DNA of 12,239 bases from a virus. Its lineage: Duplodnaviria > Heunggongvirae > Uroviricota > Caudoviricetes. The position numbers and the translations under genes are program-made. Below the pieces are notes generated by a model that was not told where the DNA came from, ran no database searches, and saw only the letters and a list, made by a program, of their open reading frames with translations. Below, piece after piece: positions 3-12,239 of this stretch. Numbering within the stretch: the first letter of the stretch is position 1; the number at the start of each line of letters is the position of its first letter. The stretch is from the IMG/VR virus record IMGVR_UViG_2671180458_000003, one strand, 5' to 3'.

Positions 3-248
3 ATGAAAACCATCTTTATCAAACCCGAGCCGGGACGCCTGATTCGTGATCCCGACACAATGCGCCCGCTGGCACAGGAGGGAGAGAAAAAGCCCTTCAC
101 GCCGTTCTGGTGTCGGCGTCTTGATGACGGCGATGTCATTCAGGCTGAAAAAGCCGCTGAAGAGGCTCCGGCTGTATCTGCGGATGCAACGACTGCGACA
201 GAAAAACCGGTCGCCCAACCGGCATCCGATAAGGAGAAACCGCAATGA
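3..248 (+). CDS. hypothetical protein immediately upstream of the tail sheath gene (possibly 5'-partial)
   Basis: 81-aa ORF whose TGA stop overlaps the sheath ATG (ATGA at 245-248), suggesting translational coupling. Ala/Thr/Pro-rich low-complexity C-terminus. The window begins 2 nt before its first ATG, so the true start may lie upstream. Confidence 0.4.
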   Translation: MKTIFIKPEPGRLIRDPDTMRPLAQEGEKKPFTPFWCRRLDDGDVIQAEKAAEEAPAVSADATTATEKPVAQPASDKEKPQ

Positions 249-1747
249 TTAATTTTGACGGGATCGGTAATGACCGCCGTATACCGCTGATTGAGGTTGA
301 GTTTAATAACTCCATGGCTGTCACCGGCACTCCGGCACAGCGTCAGTGTGTGCTGCTGTTTGGTCAGGCGAGAATGAAAGAGAATGCCGTGGACGGTGCC
401 GGTGTTCTGGATGTTCCGGTCAGGATCACCCGTGCGTCTCAGGCAACAGAACTCTGGGGGCGCGGCTCCATGATTGCCCTGATGGTGGCGGAATTTATCG
501 CCATCAATCCTGATGCTGAACTGTATGCCATTGCTCAGGGGAATGGCACCGGACAGGCGTTATCCGCCGCCATGAATCTGACCGGAACGGTCACCCGTGA
601 CGGAATTGTTTATGCCTGCGTGGGGGGGCGGCGTTATACACTCCCGGCACCAAAAGGTAAGAAAGGCAAAGAACTGACCGACGAGCTGGCCGCGCTGATC
701 AATGCCGATCCTGACGCGCCCTTCACGGCCTCCTCTGGTGCAGGAAGTGGTGATAATGGCGCAGGTCTGAAAGGGTCTCTGGGGATCACCGCCCGCTTTA
801 CCGGTGAATGCTCCGTTCATGATGTGCGCCTGAACTATCACGACGGGGAAGCAACCCCGGAAGGAATACAGGTCGCTATAGCCTATCCGAAACAAAAAGC
901 GGCTAACCCGGATATCACCCGAAGCGTGGCGGGTATGGGCGATCGCCAGTACAACTATGTCGTCATGCCCTATAAGGATGATGCAAACCTGAAAATCATC
1001 AGTGATGAGCTTCTGAAACGCTGGGGACCGGCCAAAATGTCTGACGGCGTGCTGTGGCTGGCACATACCGGCACGTTTGGTGAGGTGCAGGCATTCGGGG
1101 CAAAACGCAATGATTTTCTGGCGACCTGCACATCCATTCCCAAAGCCCCTGAACCGGATTACCTCTGGGCCGCGGCGGTCTGCGCCACCTGTGCACCCTC
1201 TCTGGGAGCAGATCCTGCGCGTCCGCTTCAGACGCTGGCGCTTCCGTCACGCATGGCCCCGGCTCCGGCCGATCGTCTGACGCGTGAAGAGCGTAACAGT
1301 CTGTTGTGGGGAGGGATTGCCACGGTCAGTGTGGCTGCCGGTGATGTGCTTCAGATCGAACGTCAGGTGACCATGTATCGCCAGAACGTGTACGGCGAAA
1401 GTGATCCCAGCTATCTGGATGTGGAAACCATCTACACCCTCTCCTGGCTGCGTTATTCCCTGCGTACTTTTATCACACAACGTTTTCCGCGCCATAAACT
1501 GGCTGATGACGGGACGCCCGTTCGTGCCGGTCAGAATATCGTGACACCGGAGATCATGAAGCTTCAGTTAATTTCGCTGGGTGAAGAGTGGGTGGAACTC
1601 GGGCTGGTCGAAAATCTGGACACTTTTAAAAAGAATCTGCTTGTGGAGCGTAATGCGTCAGATCGAAACCGCCTTGACGTGTTATGCACGCCGGATCTGG
1701 TTAACCAGTTCCGCTTCCTGGCAGCACAGATCCGTTTCATTTTGTGA
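245..1747 (+). CDS. phage contractile tail sheath protein (Mu gpL-like)
   Basis: 500-aa ORF with a strong SD (AAGGAG at 235-240) before the ATG. It is followed 8 bp later by a ~120-aa ORF, the canonical sheath-tube pair, and sits first in a Mu-like tail gene order. Call is by size and synteny, not by a recognised motif. Confidence 0.65.
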   Translation: MINFDGIGNDRRIPLIEVEFNNSMAVTGTPAQRQCVLLFGQARMKENAVDGAGVLDVPVRITRASQATELWGRGSMIALMVAEFIAINPDAELYAIAQGNGTGQALSAAMNLTGTVTRDGIVYACVGGRRYTLPAPKGKKGKELTDELAALINADPDAPFTASSGAGSGDNGAGLKGSLGITARFTGECSVHDVRLNYHDGEATPEGIQVAIAYPKQKAANPDITRSVAGMGDRQYNYVVMPYKDDANLKIISDELLKRWGPAKMSDGVLWLAHTGTFGEVQAFGAKRNDFLATCTSIPKAPEPDYLWAAAVCATCAPSLGADPARPLQTLALPSRMAPAPADRLTREERNSLLWGGIATVSVAAGDVLQIERQVTMYRQNVYGESDPSYLDVETIYTLSWLRYSLRTFITQRFPRHKLADDGTPVRAGQNIVTPEIMKLQLISLGEEWVELGLVENLDTFKKNLLVERNASDRNRLDVLCTPDLVNQFRFLAAQIRFIL

Positions 1748-1755
1748 GGTAAGGC

Positions 1756-2121
1756 ATGAGCGGAAAACAGTATCAGGGCACGGCCACTATCCGTGTGAAC
1801 GGTCAGGAATACGAGACGCTTGAGGGGGCTACATTTTCTCCGTCAGGTTTTGAACGTGAAGTGGTGAAAGGCGCGAAAGTCTATGGTTACCGCCAGAAAC
1901 CACGTGAAGCGACGCTGGACTGCAAATTTCCGGCAGGCGGAGAAGGCTCACCAGCCGCTGATGAAATCAACAACTGGACTGCGGTCACCATCGAGTTTGT
2001 GGCGGATACCGGCGAAGTCCACATGATGACGAAGGCCTGGAGCAGTGAACCGGCCTCGCTTGACGGTGGCGGGGAGATCTCCGCGAAGTTCGCCAGTGCC
2101 ACCAGTACCCGTGTCCAGTAA
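1756..2121 (+). CDS. phage tail tube protein (Mu gpM-like)
   Basis: 121-aa ORF directly after the sheath gene and 14 bp before the chaperone gene; size and position are typical of a contractile-tail tube protein. Confidence 0.6.
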   Translation: MSGKQYQGTATIRVNGQEYETLEGATFSPSGFEREVVKGAKVYGYRQKPREATLDCKFPAGGEGSPAADEINNWTAVTIEFVADTGEVHMMTKAWSSEPASLDGGGEISAKFASATSTRVQ

Positions 2122-2135
2122 TCAGGAAAAATGCA

Positions 2136-2612
2136 ATGACCACACGAAAGAAAAAAAACGCGGTTTCTGACGAAGCCGTTATTGAGGCTATCCGTGATGC
2201 ACTTGAGGACGGCGATCCACGCACCGCCGGTCTGGCAGAACAACTGGCGAAAGGCTATGTGGATCTGCTTGATGGTCTGCCATTCGGTGAGTCCCGTGAA
2301 TACCGCGTCACCTTCCGCGAACTGACGGCGAAAGACAGCATTGATGCGGAAACCGATGCTGAACGTCTTATGGAAACCCGAAACGGCCCGGTTCTGGTGG
2401 CATCACCGGCCCTGCGCGGTATTGCGCTGCTGCGTCGCCAGATTGCCGCTGTCGGTGACATTCAGGGGCCGTTGTCACAACGCCAGATTGGGCAGTTAAG
2501 CGAGCGCGATCTCTCCCGTCTGATGGCAGCGGTCAGCCTGCTGGATACCGCGCTTGCCGGAAAGCTGGCGGCTGATCGGGGGCGAGCAGGCGCAGTGTCG
2601 GGCGCAGATTGA
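2136..2612 (+). CDS. tail assembly chaperone (Mu gp41-like position)
   Basis: 158-aa acidic ORF between the tube and tape measure genes. Its 3' end overlaps an alternative-frame ORF that runs to just before the tape measure start, the lambda G/GT-like arrangement. Confidence 0.55.
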   Translation: MTTRKKKNAVSDEAVIEAIRDALEDGDPRTAGLAEQLAKGYVDLLDGLPFGESREYRVTFRELTAKDSIDAETDAERLMETRNGPVLVASPALRGIALLRRQIAAVGDIQGPLSQRQIGQLSERDLSRLMAAVSLLDTALAGKLAADRGRAGAVSGAD

Positions 2613-2736
2613 AGAAGCGGCAATAGTGCTGGGGATGGTGACCAGAAGCGGCCCGGAATGGGCGCTTAACCTCCCCTTATCGCAACTTTACCGGCACTGC
2701 CAACAAACGGAAAAAATTCTCAGAACGAAGAAGTAA
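2524..2736 (+). CDS. putative frameshift-extension reading frame of the tail chaperone
   Basis: The frame one nucleotide downstream of the chaperone frame is open from 2524 to a TAA at 2734-2736, 3 nt before the tape measure ATG (2740) and in the same frame as it. The six-frame track reports it only from a TTG at 2554. Candidate shift sites are GGG-GGC-GA (2578-2585) and the terminal GAT-TGA (2607-2612). Confidence 0.35.
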   Translation, partial: WQRSACWIPRLPESWRLIGGEQAQCRAQIEEAAIVLGMVTRSGPEWALNLPLSQLYRHCQQTEKILRTKK

Positions 2737-2739
2737 TCC

Positions 2740-4794
2740 ATGGCAAAAAACCTGAAAGCCTCCCTGATTGTCGATTTACTCGGCAATGTTTCCGCCAAAT
2801 CCCGCCAGTGGTCACAGGAGCTGGGGGCGTTCTCCCGCGTCGGCAGGACGGGGCTGGGTGGTATTGGAAATGCAGCCCGCCGTGCCGGTCAGGAGACAGA
2901 GCTTGTCGGCTCCCGTATGCAGCGTACGCTTGCCGGTGTCCGTGGCAGTATCCGCACGGTAACGTCGGATTTTGACCGTCTTCAGGGCAGTATTACCGGC
3001 ACGCTGGGACGTCTCAGCAACCTTTACGGGATGCTGGCAGGAGGGGCTGCGGTCTACGGTTTTAATAAAGCCTTTATCCGCCCGGCCGCAGAGATGGAGA
3101 ACTATATTCTGCGTCTCAATGCCATTAATCATGGCGATACGGCAAAAACGGAAGCAGTGAAAGCCTGGGCGGTACAGAACGCAAAGGAAACCACCTGGGG
3201 ACTGGCGGGGGTTATGCAGGAATACGCCTCCAGTCGCGGGTTCGGTATGAGTGACAGGGAAGCCCGCCGCTTTATTACCATGCTTCAGGATCAGGGCGGC
3301 TATCACGGCTGGTCACTGTCAGATGCACAGGGGGCGTCCCTGCAACTCAAACAGATGTTTGCCCGCCAGAGTATCCAGGCCGCGGACGCCAGTATCCTGA
3401 CCGGATACGGGATAAACGTTTACCAGTTGCTGGCCGATAAACTGGGTGTAAACCAGAAGACCATCCGTGAGAAAGGCGAGAAAGGAAAACTGGGACCGGA
3501 CAGCATTCGGCTGTTATTTCAGGTGATGGCCGAACAGGCAAAAGGTGCCCAGAAAAACGCCATGAACTCATGGACAGGGATGACATCCATGATGGGCGAC
3601 GTCTGGGACGGATTTGCCCGTGAAGTAATGGCAAAAGGGCCATTTGACAGCCTGAAAAAGAGCCTGAAAGGCTTCCTGGATTATGCCGATGCGGCACAGA
3701 AAAGCGGCTTACAGGACAAGCTGGCCACACAAACAGCCTCAGCCCTGAATCAGGGCTTTGAGTATGCCAGAGACGCAGCGACGGGTTTTTACCGGGCCAT
3801 TCAGAAAGTCAGGGAAACGCTTCAGGCATTGCGTGACGCTGGTTATGGCGATGCGCTGGATCGCATTGGTCAGGGCGCACAGACCGCCGCGAAATATCTC
3901 CTGTATATGTATCTCGCCACCCGTGCGCTGAAGGCTGTCCGCGCCATAGGTCTTGGGGCACTGCGACCGGGGGCGGCATTGTTGGGGTACGGGTTATCCA
4001 CGGCCGCTGTGCTGACCTCGCCTTTTCGTAAACCGCAGACCACCGTTCCGGGCACGCAGCCAGGACGCGGCCAGCGTTTTATGAACTTTCTTACCGGGGT
4101 AAATCCTGCTGCCGTTCAGCCCGTACTGGTCACCAACTGGCCTGCGGGTGGTCTGGCATCTGGTGGCGGGGATGTGGTGGTCAGCGGTGACGGCAAAACC
4201 GTGCGCAGCCGTAAAAAACGCGGCCCCGGACGTGGGCGGGGTGTCACGACCGTTGTGACTGCCGGTGAGCAACTGGCAGAGAGCGCCGGTAAACAGGGCT
4301 TCTTCGGTCGTATGATGAGCCGTGCCGGTGGTCTGCTTTCGGCTGCCGGAAGCCGCATGGGGTTGGGGCGTTTTGCCGGGCTTTTCCGTGGTGCCGGTCG
4401 GCTGGGCGGTGGTGCCCTGTGGGCCGGGGCCATGGCGGCTCCTGTACTGCTGGACAGCAGTGCCAGTGCCGTTGATAAAGCCGGTGCCGTGGGTTCCCTT
4501 GCCGGAAGTATCGCCGGTGGTGCGCTGGGGGCTGCCGCCGGTCCGGTCGGGGTTGCCATTGGCTCCACGGTGGGCAGTTATCTCGGTGATTATCTGGGGG
4601 GATGGCTGACCGAAGCCTGGCAGAAATTACGGGGCAGTGATGAAAATGGCGGACAGGCCACCGCGAAAACCGCCGCACGGGTGGAGCTTGTGGCCCCTGA
4701 AGGCTGGCGGGCACGCAGTATTGATGTGGATGATACCGCACAGCATGGTCTTGATGTGAACGTCTGGAACGGAGGGAACTATGGCCTCTACTGA
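2740..4794 (+). CDS. tail tape measure protein
   Basis: 684-aa ORF, the longest in the operon, directly after the chaperone pair. Ala/Gln/Lys-rich N-terminal two thirds and a Gly/Ala-rich hydrophobic C-terminal third (GGALWAGAMAAPVLL, GSLAGSIAGGALGAAAGPVGVAIGS), typical of tape measure proteins. Confidence 0.8.
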   Translation: MAKNLKASLIVDLLGNVSAKSRQWSQELGAFSRVGRTGLGGIGNAARRAGQETELVGSRMQRTLAGVRGSIRTVTSDFDRLQGSITGTLGRLSNLYGMLAGGAAVYGFNKAFIRPAAEMENYILRLNAINHGDTAKTEAVKAWAVQNAKETTWGLAGVMQEYASSRGFGMSDREARRFITMLQDQGGYHGWSLSDAQGASLQLKQMFARQSIQAADASILTGYGINVYQLLADKLGVNQKTIREKGEKGKLGPDSIRLLFQVMAEQAKGAQKNAMNSWTGMTSMMGDVWDGFAREVMAKGPFDSLKKSLKGFLDYADAAQKSGLQDKLATQTASALNQGFEYARDAATGFYRAIQKVRETLQALRDAGYGDALDRIGQGAQTAAKYLLYMYLATRALKAVRAIGLGALRPGAALLGYGLSTAAVLTSPFRKPQTTVPGTQPGRGQRFMNFLTGVNPAAVQPVLVTNWPAGGLASGGGDVVVSGDGKTVRSRKKRGPGRGRGVTTVVTAGEQLAESAGKQGFFGRMMSRAGGLLSAAGSRMGLGRFAGLFRGAGRLGGGALWAGAMAAPVLLDSSASAVDKAGAVGSLAGSIAGGALGAAAGPVGVAIGSTVGSYLGDYLGGWLTEAWQKLRGSDENGGQATAKTAARVELVAPEGWRARSIDVDDTAQHGLDVNVWNGGNYGLY

Positions 4795-9363: not shown

Positions 9364-9914
9364 CCCTCACTCCGCATCAGCGCGCCCTGTTGCAGTTGCT
9401 GCCTGACGGACTGGCCTGGGACAAGCGGCCGTCATCCGTACTGGCTGCGTTATGCCTTGGCCTCAGCCATTCCACCGAACGTGTTGCATGGACGGGAAAA
9501 CAGCTGCTGGCAGAACGTTTCCCTGACAGTTCCCGTCTGCTTCTGGAAGACTGGGAGCGTTATCTCGGCCTTCCCGAGTGTGATATGGCCGGAGCCACCA
9601 TCACAGAACGACAGCGTTATGCCGGGAATAAATACCGGATGAAGCCTTCGCTGAACCGTGAATTTTATATCAGGTTTGCGGCAGAGTTTGGTTATGAAAT
9701 AGATATTCAGCCATCACCGGATTCACAGTGGGTCAGTATTGTCACGATAAACAGTGAAACCGGCTACCGGAATATGAATGTGCTGGATGATATTCTCACG
9801 CCGCTGCGTATTTATGAGGGTGGTGCGCTGGAATGTATTCTGAACCGTTATAAGCCTGCATGGCAGACGTTTATTTACGTGTATGCAAACAGTCACGAAG
9901 AGGAGAATATTTAA
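9354..9914 (+). CDS. tail/baseplate protein, Mu gp48 / P2 gpI-like (DUF2313, YmfQ-type)
   Basis: 186-aa ORF overlapping the J-like stop. Motifs LLPDGLAW and [10 protein letters not shown] match what I remember of the YmfQ/gp48 family. Lies immediately before the tail fibre gene. Confidence 0.65.
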
Positions 9915-10825
9915 TGTTCCATGTTGATAATAATTCCGGCGTGGCGAATATGCCTGAACTGGCTCCGGCGCAGAGTAATACCACCACCTGGTTTACCGAG
10001 GGGGACGGACAGAAAGGTATCAGCTGGATTGGTCAGGACTGGCTGAATATTCTCCAGGCCGAACTGCTGAATATTCTGGCTGAAGCCAGTATTCAGCCGG
10101 ATAAGGCGCAGTTAAACCAGCTTACGCTGTCCATTAAAGCCATTATCGCTGCGAATGCTTTTTCCCGGAAAAATAACCTGAAAGAAATTGCTGATGCCGG
10201 TGCGGATGCTCAGCGTCTGGCCCGTGGTTATCTTGGTCTGGGGACGCTTGCCACAAAAAACAGTCTTGGTCCCGGTGACGTTAATGCCCTGGCGAAGGTT
10301 CAGAATCTCGCCGACCTGGAGAATAAGGGAACCGCCCGTAATAATCTGGATGTTTACAGCAAGAGCGAAGGTGATAACCGTTACCTGCGCAGGGAGCAGC
10401 ACGGCGCAGACATTCCGAATAAAGGGGCTTTTATCGATAACCTCGGTTTACGGGAAACGGTAAACAGGGCTGCAAATGCCCTGCCATCGAATGGTACAGC
10501 CGTAGCGGCAAACAAGCTGTCTGCGGCACGTAAAATTAATGGTGTTGCGTTCGATGGCACAAAAGACATCACTATTACATCCGGTATGACCCAGGCTACA
10601 GCAGACGGCAGATATGTTCGTAATGTGCAACTTGGTGCTCAGAGCCGCCACTCTCCTGCGGGTAATGAAGTCACCTGGGATTATAAAACACCAGCAGGTT
10701 GTATGCTTTCCGGTATTCATGTACAGGATACCGGCTCCCGGTCTGCGGATAATATCGGTGGGGTCTATTATCGCCCGGTTCAGATTTATATTAATAATGT
10801 CTGGAGAACGGTGAGTTCAGTGTAA
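9914..10825 (+). CDS. tail fibre protein: constant N-terminal part (9914-10443) fused to the currently expressed variable C-terminal cassette (10444-10825)
   Basis: 303 aa from ATG 9914 (AGGAG 8 nt upstream, TAATG overlap with the previous stop); the track ORF 9860 is a spurious upstream extension. The N-terminus [15 protein letters not shown] is of the Mu S / e14 tail-fibre type as I remember it. The gene is interrupted internally by a gix-like crossover site at 10431-10456. Confidence 0.8.
10431..10456. other. gix/pix/hix-like 26-bp invertase crossover site (left)
   Basis: TTATCGATAACCTCGGTTTACGGGAA. Its reverse complement TTCCCGTAAACCGAGGTTATCGATAA closely resembles Mu gixL as I recall it (TTCCTGTAAACCGAGGTTTTGGATAA), with a central GA dinucleotide at 10443-10444. 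Lies inside the tail-fibre ORF at the constant/variable junction. Confidence 0.7.
10441..10560. repeat. left inverted repeat of the invertible segment (pairs with 11590-11709)
   Basis: Hand alignment of the reverse complement of 10441-10560 against 11590-11709 gives 96/120 identities, rising to about 90% or more in the ~50 bp next to the crossover site. Both copies encode nearly identical peptide (NLGLR[E/D][18 protein letters not shown]...INGVAFDGT). Confidence 0.75.
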
Positions 10826-10835
10826 ACCACAGAAA

Positions 10836-10854
10836 AGGGTGCTGAATGCACCCT
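10836..10854. terminator. hairpin between convergent genes (candidate bidirectional intrinsic terminator)
   Basis: AGGGTGC-TGAAT-GCACCCT, a 7-bp perfect stem with 5-nt loop, 10 nt after the fibre stop and 5 nt before the minus-strand assembly-gene stop. T-rich flank on the minus-strand side (TTTCTGTGGT). Confidence 0.4.
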
Positions 10855-10859
10855 CTGAA

Positions 10860-11256
10860 TTATTCCGGTTTTTCCGGCCAGGAAATCGCCTGGTAATGCC
10901 TCTCGCTGGCAATATCATTAAGGTGCATTTCTTTAAGCTGTCGGATATACGCCATCCAGCGCGTCAGCTTTAATTTATTTTCATCGCTAATCATGTCCAG
11001 TTTTAATTCTGTTTTCCAGTCATCCACGGTTCCGTTGGCCTCCTGGAGCAGCGATGAACGGCGATTTTCAGCAACCGTATTCCAGTTTACCGGCACCTTT
11101 GATATCAGGCCATCAGAAAACTGCCAGTTACCGTCAATATTCACACCTTCCGGCAGTTCGTCCACTTCAACAACAGTAAAACCTGCCGGATATAAAGCAG
11201 AGACATCTTCAGCAACAGAGCAGATAATGCCCGTTACAGGCGAAATACAGAGTTTG
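10860..11256 (-). CDS. tail fibre assembly protein (Tfa / Mu U-like), N-terminus lost in the N-gap
   Basis: 132 visible codons ending at stop 10860-10862. Carries Tfa-type motifs (GIICSVAEDVSALYPAGFTVVEV, MISDENKLKLTRWMAYIRQ, C-terminal WPEKPE). The reading frame runs into the N run at 11257. Confidence 0.7.
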
Positions 11257-11410
11257 NNNNNNNNNNNNNNNNNNNNNNNNNNNNNNNNNNNNNNNNNNNN
11301 NNNNNNNNNNNNNNNNNNNNNNNNNNNNNNNNNNNNNNNNNNNNNNNNNNNNNNNNNNNNNNNNNNNNNNNNNNNNNNNNNNNNNNNNNNNNNNNNNNNN
11401 NNNNNNNNNN
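11257..11410. other. run of 154 N (assembly gap or masked sequence)
   Basis: Literal n characters in the sequence. It lies inside the invertible segment and hides the junction between the alternative fibre cassette and the assembly-gene 5' end. Confidence 0.95.
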
Positions 11411-11705
11411 CACCACCACGCATTTCCCAGTCTCCGTCAGTCTTAAAACCGGTAATCACATTTCCTGATGACAGGGAGTAATTATATTCCAGTCCACCGC
11501 TTAATGCCTGCGCTCCCAGTCTTACCCCTGTAACATAACGCTGATTGGCCGTTGATTCCGGCATTCCTGACGTAATGTTTATATCCTGCGTGCCGTCAAA
11601 GGCGACACCATTGATTCTGCGGGCATTTGCCAGCCTGCTTGCTGCAACAGCCGTACCGTTTGATGGCAGGGCATTCGCGGCCCTGTTTACCGTATCCCGT
11701 AAACC
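11411..11705 (-). CDS. promoterless alternative tail-fibre C-terminal cassette (Sv'), 3' end lost in the N-gap
   Basis: Minus-strand frame is open from the right crossover site (codons [24 protein letters not shown]...) through ...QRYVTGVRLGAQALSGGLEYNYSLSSGNVITGFKTDGDWEMRGG into the gap. The first ~38 aa are near-identical to the plus-strand fibre after its crossover site, then the sequence diverges. No start codon or SD of its own at the 5' end; the track's Met at 11564 is internal. Confidence 0.7.
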
Positions 11706-11709
11706 GAGG
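11590..11709. repeat. right inverted repeat of the invertible segment (pairs with 10441-10560)
   Basis: See left repeat: about 80% identity over 120 bp by hand alignment. It gives rise to a mirror-image spurious ORF (11545-11760 +). Confidence 0.75.
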
Positions 11710-11719
11710 TTTCAGGGAT
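11694..11719. other. gix/pix/hix-like 26-bp invertase crossover site (right)
   Basis: ATCCCGTAAACCGAGGTTTCAGGGAT. It shares the inner half-site and core (TCCCGTAAACCGAGGTT) with the left site in inverted orientation; the outer half-site differs. Central GA at 11706-11707. Lies 55 bp upstream of the invertase ATG. Confidence 0.7.
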
Positions 11720-11773
11720 GCCGTATATCTGCTTTAAAAGGCATTTTCACCTCTTTTTAAGGAAGGTAAATAC

Positions 11774-12216
11774 ATGCTTATTGGCTATATACGCGTATCA
11801 ACAAATGATCAGAACACAGGTTACAAAGAAATGCGCTGGAATGTGCAGGATGTGAGCTGATTTTTGAAGATAAAATGAGCGGAAAAACAACGCAGCGGCC
11901 GGGACTGAAGCGGGCACTGAAGAAACTAAAACCCGGTGACACGCTGATGGTCTGGAAACTGGACAGGCTGGGGCGCAGTATGCGCCACCTTGTTGCGCTG
12001 ACAGATGAATTACAGCAACAGGGGATAAATTTTCGTAGTCTTACTGACAACATTGATACGTCAACCCCCATGGGGCGCTTCTTTTTTCACATAATGGGTG
12101 CGCTGGCAGAAATGGAGCGTGAATTGATTGTCGAACGGACACGGGCTGGTCTTGCAGCTGCCCGTGAAAGGGGACGAACCGGCGGCAGACCCCGTCGTCT
12201 CACGCAGGAACAATAG
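11774..12216 (+). pseudogene. Gin/Pin/Cin/Hin-family serine DNA invertase, reading frame disrupted (frameshift near 11817-11821; ORF also ends early at 12216)
   Basis: ATG 11774 with AGGAAGG SD gives MLIGYIRVSTNDQNT, the invertase N-terminus with catalytic Ser at position 9, then runs out of frame to a TGA at 11858-11860. The frame one nucleotide back continues LQRNALECAGCELIFEDKMSGKTTQRPGLKRALK...GRFFFHIMGALAEMERELIVERTRAGLAAARERG, collinear with Gin/Hin as I remember them. That frame stops at 12214-12216 (TAG-TAA), about 40 codons short of a typical invertase and before the C-terminal HTH. Confidence 0.65.
11866..11932. promoter_or_regulatory. putative Fis-dependent recombinational enhancer inside the 5' part of the invertase gene
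   Basis: Two Fis-like 15-mers (G-N13-C with an AT-rich centre): GAAGATAAAATGAGC at 11866-11880 and GAAGAAACTAAAACC at 11918-11932, centres about 52 bp apart. Gin/Hin enhancers are known to lie within the first ~150 bp of the invertase gene. Pattern match only. Confidence 0.25.
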
Positions 12217-12239
12217 TAAGCGTAAACTGACCGCCGTAT

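Follow-up and report, generated by a model that had tools for sequence, protein, structure and literature searches.

A compact invertible tail-fibre segment with a single assembly gene in Sp18-type Mu-like prophages of Escherichia coli

The virus record IMGVR_UViG_2671180458_000003 contains the stretch of 12,239 nucleotides analysed here (the window), which encodes a Mu-like tail and baseplate module with sheath, tube and tape-measure proteins, a DNA_circ_N protein, homologues of gp44 to gp48 and a Phage_Mu_Gp48 protein (Pfam). The right-hand part of the window, which is the subject of this work, carries a tail-fibre gene with a constant part (Sc) and an expressed variable cassette (Sv, tip type A), followed by a converging tail-fibre assembly gene (tfa), a silent variable cassette (Sv', tip type B) and the remains of a gene for a Gin-family serine invertase. 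In Escherichia coli O157:H7 strain Sakai, the counterpart of this locus (genes ECs_4989 to ECs_4992) is annotated as 'prophage Sp18, Mu-like phage', a prophage family known since 2001. With a probability of about 90%, we take the region to be the counterpart of the Mu G segment in the Sp18 family: an invertible segment for host range, carried by a Mu-like prophage of this type in E. coli.

The window is interrupted by a run of N inside the segment, and this gap was filled from the complete chromosome of E. coli 89-3156 (NZ_CP027366.1), whose copy of the locus is called L001. The sequence of L001 is identical to the window on either side of the gap, from the fibre gene to the gap and from the gap to position 12215, and presents a single mismatch over the 4 kb that precede this gene. 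The coordinates of the features are presented in Table 1.

Table 1. Features of the invertible tail-fibre region, in coordinates of the window (L001 coordinates where indicated)
Feature	Position	Strand	Remarks
Tail-fibre constant part Sc	9914-10442	+	Residues 1-176, to the crossover; open reading frame 9914-10825, 303 codons
Left 26-bp gix-like crossover site	10431-10456		TTATCGATAACC TC GGTTTACGGGAA; centre TC at 10443-10444; within the fibre reading frame; 23/26 with Mu gix
Inverted repeat, left arm	10439-10588	+	150 nt, 77% identical to the right arm; both cassettes begin with it
Expressed variable cassette Sv, tip type A	10443-10825	+	127 residues; not followed by a tfa gene on that strand
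G+C-rich hairpin between the converging Sv and tfa stops	10834-10856		L001 4997-4975; stem of 9 pairs with a T-rich tail after it; resembles a terminator on the minus strand
Tail-fibre assembly gene tfa, visible 3' part	10860-11256	-	397 nt visible; L001 5001-5522 in full, 173 codons
N run (assembly gap)	11257-11410		154 N in place of 317 real nt; window 11256 = L001 5397, 11411 = L001 5715
Silent variable cassette Sv', tip type B, visible part	11411-11707	-	No start codon; TGA directly upstream of the site
Inverted repeat, right arm	11562-11711	-	150 nt, 77% identical to the left arm
Right 26-bp crossover site	11694-11719		ATCCCGTAAACC GA GGTTTCAGGGAT; centre GA at 11706-11707; 19/26 with Mu gix
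Gin-family serine invertase pseudogene	11774-12215	+	Lacks 1 nt in codon 17; ends two bases into codon 148
IS66-family insertion sequence, left end (GTAAGCG...)	12216-12239	+	GTAAGCGTAAACTGACCGCCGTAT; interrupts invertase codon 148; window ends inside it

Two 26-bp sites in inverted orientation delimit the segment, and they have a common core, as proposed in the original prediction from the sequence of the window. The 17-mer AACCTCGGTTTACGGGA that they share occurs once per strand, at 10439-10455 on the plus strand and at 11695-11711 on the minus strand, and had no match in 200 dinucleotide-preserving shuffles, even when two mismatches were allowed. The sites gixL and gixR of Mu (AF083977) are identical to each other (TTATCCAAAACC TC GGTTTACAGGAA), and the predicted resemblance to them was found for both sites, more closely for the left one; the two half-sites of the right one agree with each other at 10 of 12 positions. 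The left site lies inside the fibre reading frame, as had been stated. It is read there on the plus strand as ..IDN-L-G-L-R-E.., while the right site is read on the minus strand as a TGA stop followed by N-L-G-L-R-D.., so that the N-L-G-L-R reading across the crossover holds on both strands. A search for a third crossover site in the 9.4-kb locus, as expected of a multi-site system like Min or the shufflons, found none (the next best 26-mer scored 16/24, against 24/24), and a system of this type was ruled out.

The sites stand at the outer ends of an inverted repeat, which had been estimated by hand at about 120 bp and 80% identity. The measured identity is 80% over 120 nt, and decays from 100% in the first 17 nt, counted from the outer end, to 90% over 60 nt and 70% over 200 nt. 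In the 40 nt outside the sites, the identity of the flanks falls to 15%. The longest identical runs shared by the two arms have 17, 14 and 14 nt. This repeat may have caused the break in the draft assembly.

The gap hides the first 125 nt of tfa, a spacer of 121 nt and the final 71 nt of Sv'. With the gap filled, the segment has 1426 bp from centre to centre, against 1263 bp as written in the window; the compactness announced in the original prediction is real, while its length of about 1.26 kb, which allowed for some hidden sequence, was an underestimate. The spacer (L001 5523-5643) contains a 9-bp inverted repeat, TCTGAAATA TGCGT TATTTCAGA. The same spacer opens an upstream ATG, which would give the Tfa protein a hydrophobic extension of 17 residues.

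The fibre is a relative of the Mu tail fibre S. Residues 1-198 are 48% identical to residues 1-191 of Mu S, and the top match in the PDB is chain A of entry 5YVQ, the Mu tail fibre S (E=1e-53). Over about the last 75 residues, the identity is 41% with the C-terminal tip of Mu S and 48-59% with P2-like H-fibre tips. No Pfam family was matched by either the expressed or the alternative fibre, whose homologies come from pairwise, PDB and tblastn comparisons. The assembly gene was identified by its annotation as a tail fiber assembly protein, by the Pfam family Caudo_TAP (E=4e-18), by chain B of PDB 5YVQ and by 29-31% identity to U and U' of Mu. The interval between the converging Sv and tfa genes has 34 nt and includes the hairpin.

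When L001 was inverted in silico at the central dinucleotides, an open fibre gene of 298 codons was obtained, with residues 1-176 in common with the 303-codon fibre. The two tips have 72 identical residues in 134 aligned columns, mostly in their shared start, and diverge strongly after about 50 residues. Each of them is annotated as a whole protein in natural genomes: cassette B, silent in the window, is the expressed end of a 298-residue fibre in the genomes with the other orientation. The prediction that an exchange between 10443/10444 and 11706/11707 would join an alternative C-terminus in frame thus has its counterpart in nature, where the product appears as a 'phage tail protein'. Across the right site, the Prokaryotic Genome Annotation Pipeline (PGAP) reports a 'hypothetical protein' of 61 residues (11545-11760, plus strand; L001 5879-6064), which is antisense to the silent cassette and almost certainly not a gene.

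The invertase gene begins at 11774, 55 nt beyond the right site. In sibling prophages the intact gene has 186 codons and encodes a protein with the domains Resolvase (E=3e-51) and HTH_7 (E=2e-14) and the motif MLIGYIRVSTNDQ with Ser9; it is 74% identical to Gin of Mu and 70% identical to Cin. In the window the gene is inactivated by two lesions, and this genome has no functional invertase in cis. The run at 11821-11822 has lost one T (TTT to TT), which leads to a stop after 28 codons, as seen by alignment with the siblings and with Mu gin. The same deletion is present in the complete genome of 89-3156, where PGAP annotates the gene as 'frameshifted', and a sequencing error was judged unlikely as the origin of the frameshift. 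A change of GACC to GATC near the deletion is specific to this invertase allele.

The other lesion is an insertion sequence of the IS66 family, which separates the catalytic domain from the DNA-binding helix-turn-helix. The window ends in the terminal repeat of this element, and the 24-mer visible there, GTAAGCGTAAACTGACCGCCGTAT, is present in multiple copies in 3179 of 5426 E. coli genomes; in one inspected genome it lies about 60 nt upstream of IS66 tnpA, tnpB and ISEc23-family transposase genes. The window departs from L001 at position 12216, and 89-3156 does not have the insertion; the window would therefore come from a close relative of 89-3156 or from another isolate of that strain. With its own invertase destroyed, the segment should be frozen in the state that expresses tip A (A-ON), unless a related invertase acts in trans. 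The switch in this genome is an intact substrate, with both sites and both cassettes, that could flip only with an invertase provided in trans. The chromosome of 89-3156 has a second place matching the invertase gene, a possible source in trans.

In the Gin, Cin and Hin systems, inversion depends on a recombinational enhancer bound by Fis, which acts in cis and occupies a place in the 5' portion of the invertase gene. The first 140 nt or so of the invertase gene align to gin without gaps and are 85% identical to pinE, but this stretch is also coding and its conservation proves nothing about an enhancer. Both the T deletion and the GACC to GATC change fall inside it, and the deletion shortens the expected enhancer stretch by 1 bp.

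The occurrence of the inversion was assessed across public complete E. coli genomes, with orientation queries covered over at least 80% of their length. The orientation of the window, with the tip A fibre and the converging tfa, was found in 180 genomes, and the inverted state, with tip A adjoining the invertase, in 27. The in-silico inverted product was matched from end to end in seven genomes, with 97.5-98.6% identity; these genomes have an intact invertase, and their annotation treats the 298-codon fibre as an ordinary protein. Strain OkiPb01696 (NZ_AP042574.1) carries two copies of the prophage, L003 and L004, in opposite orientations. The searches returned five to seven matching places in this genome, which fits a transposing Mu-like phage, active now or formerly.

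The junctions were read in eight loci, including those of 89-3156 (L001), OkiPb01696 (L003 and L004), Sakai (L007) and one relative with only 80% identity, and they bear on the mechanism of the inversion. A 150-nt inverted repeat exists at this locus, homologous recombination between inverted repeats does invert DNA, and RecA could in principle have produced both orientations without any invertase, the gix-like sequences being then merely the best-conserved part of a duplicated fibre gene. With identical runs as short as those described above, however, the repeat would be a poor substrate for RecA. In all eight loci the outer half-sites are fixed, TTATCGATAAC followed by C or G on the left and GGTTTCAGGGAT on the right, and the inner half-sites move with the cassettes, as ..GGGAA for tip A and as ..GGGAT for tips B and C (tip C is a third type, described below). 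The diagnostic marker is the final base of the 26-mer, at a distance of 12 nt from the centre; it is A with tip A and T with the others, and it always travels with its cassette, so the exchange is confined to the 17 identical bases around the centre. Such an exchange at the centre of the site fits a site-specific enzyme and not homologous recombination along a repeat of 77% identity. The central dinucleotides are also matched between the two sites in every locus, as TC/GA in seven and as TT/AA in Sakai (L007 2279 and 3654). A matched change of this kind is required by a mechanism that cuts with a 2-nt stagger and rejoins the ends, and would not matter for homologous recombination. Since a gene of the Gin family always adjoins the segment as well, we regard an origin by RecA as extremely improbable. 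Several loci have AACG in place of AACC just to the left of the centre of the left site.

It could also be argued that the switch is a fossil in the whole family, that the silent cassette is a decaying fragment, and that the orientations were fixed long ago in separate lineages. The invertase pseudogene in the window and in 89-3156, the label 'incomplete; missing N-terminus' that annotation pipelines give to the silent cassette, and the unequal numbers of the two orientations would agree with this idea. On the other hand, an intact invertase of 186 residues is present in seven of the eight loci, and among complete genomes the record of 89-3156 alone aligned at 100% without the extra T. The silent cassettes are open in every locus, whichever of them is silent, and the sites and the architecture are retained in the 80%-identical relative. 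Orientation, moreover, does not follow descent: locus L004, which is A-ON, differs from locus L002, which expresses tip B (B-ON), at 9 of 1428 positions of the segment, and from L001, which is A-ON, at 18. Among prophages with about 99% identity, orientation is thus uncoupled from sequence relatedness, and one genome holds both states. A switch that is dead in the whole family is therefore very improbable, and, as far as genomes can be compared, the switch of this family has demonstrably flipped in nature.

For a functional switch of the Gin type, the mechanism would be as follows. By analogy with the Gin and Hin families, the invertase would bind the two 26-bp sites, cut both of them at the central 2-bp stagger, and rotate and rejoin the ends, so that the segment of 1426 bp is turned over. 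The arrangement itself can be read from the sequence: the constant 176 N-terminal residues, which serve for attachment to the baseplate, are joined either to tip A (fibre of 303 residues, the state of the window) or to tip B (298 residues), and only the B-ON state places the single tfa downstream of the fibre on the same strand. Virions of the two states should then recognise different receptors.

Some points weigh against this interpretation. The different receptor specificity of tips A and B is assumed by analogy with Mu, and the evidence for inversion is a comparison across genomes. The census is skewed, 180 to 27, and its genomes are not independent, so neither a rate nor a bias can be derived from it. 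Since the T deletion lies within the expected enhancer stretch, inversion could be impaired even with an invertase supplied in trans. Finally, no assembly gene follows tip A on the strand that encodes it, whereas related tips in P2-like phages have one within 3-4 nt, and the interpretation does not account for the folding of the A-ON fibre.

The closest known counterpart is Sp18 of Sakai, with about 90-92% DNA identity, the same order of fibre, converging tfa, silent fragment and invertase, and 26-bp sites in the same places. There, ECs_4989 is the fibre, ECs_4990 the assembly protein, ECs_4991 a 'tail fiber protein' of 67 residues and ECs_4992 the DNA-invertase; ECs_4991 corresponds to the silent cassette, translated from an internal ATG. 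Sakai differs in its silent tip, in the length of its segment, in its central dinucleotides and in its intact invertase. In Sakai-like prophages (L005, L006 and L007), tip B is replaced by tip C, which gives a fibre of 295 residues and a segment of 1375 bp, while tip A and Tfa are nearly unchanged, which means that cassettes are swapped on one side of the segment only. A copy of the locus is also inserted in two records of Shiga toxin (Stx)-converting phages.

The likeness to the G segment of Mu includes the 26-bp sites with 12-bp half-sites and a TC/GA centre, the left site at the homologous place of a homologous fibre gene (..NLGL(Q/R)ETVNRA..), the invertase gene immediately to the right, and tip and Tfa proteins of the same families. 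The Mu segment, in contrast, has 3058 bp from centre to centre, with variable cassettes of about 335 residues against about 125 in the prophage, where the middle 240 residues or so of S are absent; the Sp18-type fibre is, in effect, a shortened Mu S. Mu also has both U and U', with S and U 2 nt apart, and its 26-bp sites are identical, whereas the 150-nt repeat of the prophage has diverged. The P element of e14 in K-12 (PinE) and the C segment of P1 (Cin) likewise exchange the C-terminus of a fibre at 26-bp sites beside an invertase of the Din family; the relationship is seen at the start of pinE and, for Cin, at the protein level. The e14 element differs by two assembly genes (stfP-tfaP and stfE-tfaE), by TT/AA centres and by other half-sites (pixL, CTCTCGAAAACC TT GGTTTGGGAGAA; pixR, TTCTCCCAAACC AA CGTTTATGAAAA). 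Escherichia phage 520873, which is P2-like, and Yersinia phage vB_YpM_44 present the same succession of fibre, converging fibre fragment and invertase, with invertases that are 74% and 57% identical, respectively, but their cargo is symmetric (fibre-tfa and tfa'-fibre') and includes two chaperone genes. A fragment smaller than that of Sp18 has reportedly been described for carotovoricin Er by Nguyen et al. 2001 (J Bacteriol 183:6274): it is said to be a compact invertible fragment of about 0.8 kb, with 26-bp inverted repeats inside the fibre C-termini and an adjacent invertase, and without an assembly gene.

The gix-like sites, the in-frame exchange of tips, the natural inverted product and the adjoining invertase of the Gin/Cin/Pin family agree with the architecture of Mu G, P1 C and e14 P that had been proposed for the locus. 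The feature of these systems that is missing here is an assembly gene for each tip. All eight loci, the 80%-identical relative included, have one tfa per segment, which stands behind tip B or C and never behind tip A, and in the A-ON state, the commoner one, tfa points against the late operon. Tips B and C are followed by nearly identical Tfa proteins, so that Tfa is a generalist and not specific to a tip. In P2-like phages, tips related to A are followed within 3-4 nt by a Tfa of the U type, 31% identical to that of the Sp18 family, and tip A would accordingly be expected to need one as well. Cassette A (fibre residues 189-301) also aligns with the last 113 residues of chain c of PDB 9CUY/9MJN, a 'Short tail fiber' of 554 residues (E=9e-15); this structure could show whether such tips fold without a bound chaperone.

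A possible explanation is that the switch is asymmetric by design, inversion changing the tip and at the same time determining whether tfa is co-transcribed with the fibre. Tip A would then fold without a chaperone, or the supply of Tfa would depend on another prophage or on leftward transcription that runs into the segment past the invertase end. The retention of a single tfa down to 80% DNA identity and the constancy of Tfa between tips B and C are consistent with this proposal, as is an expression study of Sakai, which is A-ON: on an array of 70-mer oligonucleotides, ECs4990 (tfa) and ECs4991 (the silent tip) were up 2.1-fold on entry into stationary phase, and the portion of the same table considered here contains no other Sp18 gene (PMC2241611). 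As far as that portion goes, the induction points to some leftward transcription in the A-ON state, but it is a single weak signal, from lysogens and not from induced cells. In L001 4900-6120, a sigma-70 scan gave 4 sites where 3.6 would be expected by chance, and no convincingly placed one was among them upstream of tfa on its strand; the region upstream of tfa, moreover, is not conserved between segments of types B and C, whose spacers are wholly different. An internal tfa promoter was dropped as a candidate for these reasons. Independence of a chaperone would, in addition, be unexpected for a tip whose P2-like relatives each have their own Tfa. The single-tfa layout, the unchanged Tfa and the array result are compatible with an asymmetric design and none of them demonstrates it; we put it forward tentatively, as somewhat doubtful on the present evidence. 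More specifically, one generalist Tfa may serve tips A, B and C, being made in both orientations by a leftward transcript from the invertase side, or tip A may need no chaperone; we hold this proposal, in either form, to be unlikely. If true, either form would illustrate how a host-range switch may lose half its size and still function.

Two other observations concern the surroundings of the segment. Between the genes for the tail tube and the tape measure, the open reading frames 2136-2612 and 2554-2736 overlap; many phages have in this interval a pair of tail chaperones, made by programmed frameshifting. In sibling prophages the invertase gene is followed by a gene for a DUF6645 protein of about 680 residues (L001 6737-8779, past the end of the window), at the place where Mu has com and mom; the annotation of one genome describes this protein as a partial sialate O-acetylesterase.

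Tail-fibre switches of the Gin type have figured in textbooks since about 1980. The device described here is a known one, and the mechanistic gain is small; the Sp18 member of the group was previously undescribed, and its cargo is compact and asymmetric. In the open-access literature on Sp18 we found only passing mentions of it as a Mu-like prophage and no account of an inversion of the segment, while for E. coli prophages in general sequencing surveys give ample documentation of tail-fibre inversions (PMC4272514, PMC9881135). The single assembly gene is the only part with some potential for novelty. For genomics, the segment accounts for annotation oddities in more than 200 genomes of Shiga-toxin-producing E. 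coli, such as the 'incomplete phage tail protein', the short ECs_4991 and the spurious antisense 'hypothetical protein', and assemblies of such strains may legitimately differ by a 1.4-kb inversion. Beyond this, the family offers natural variation for fibre engineering and for the study of chaperone specificity, with three tips, one chaperone and matched changes of the crossover dinucleotide.

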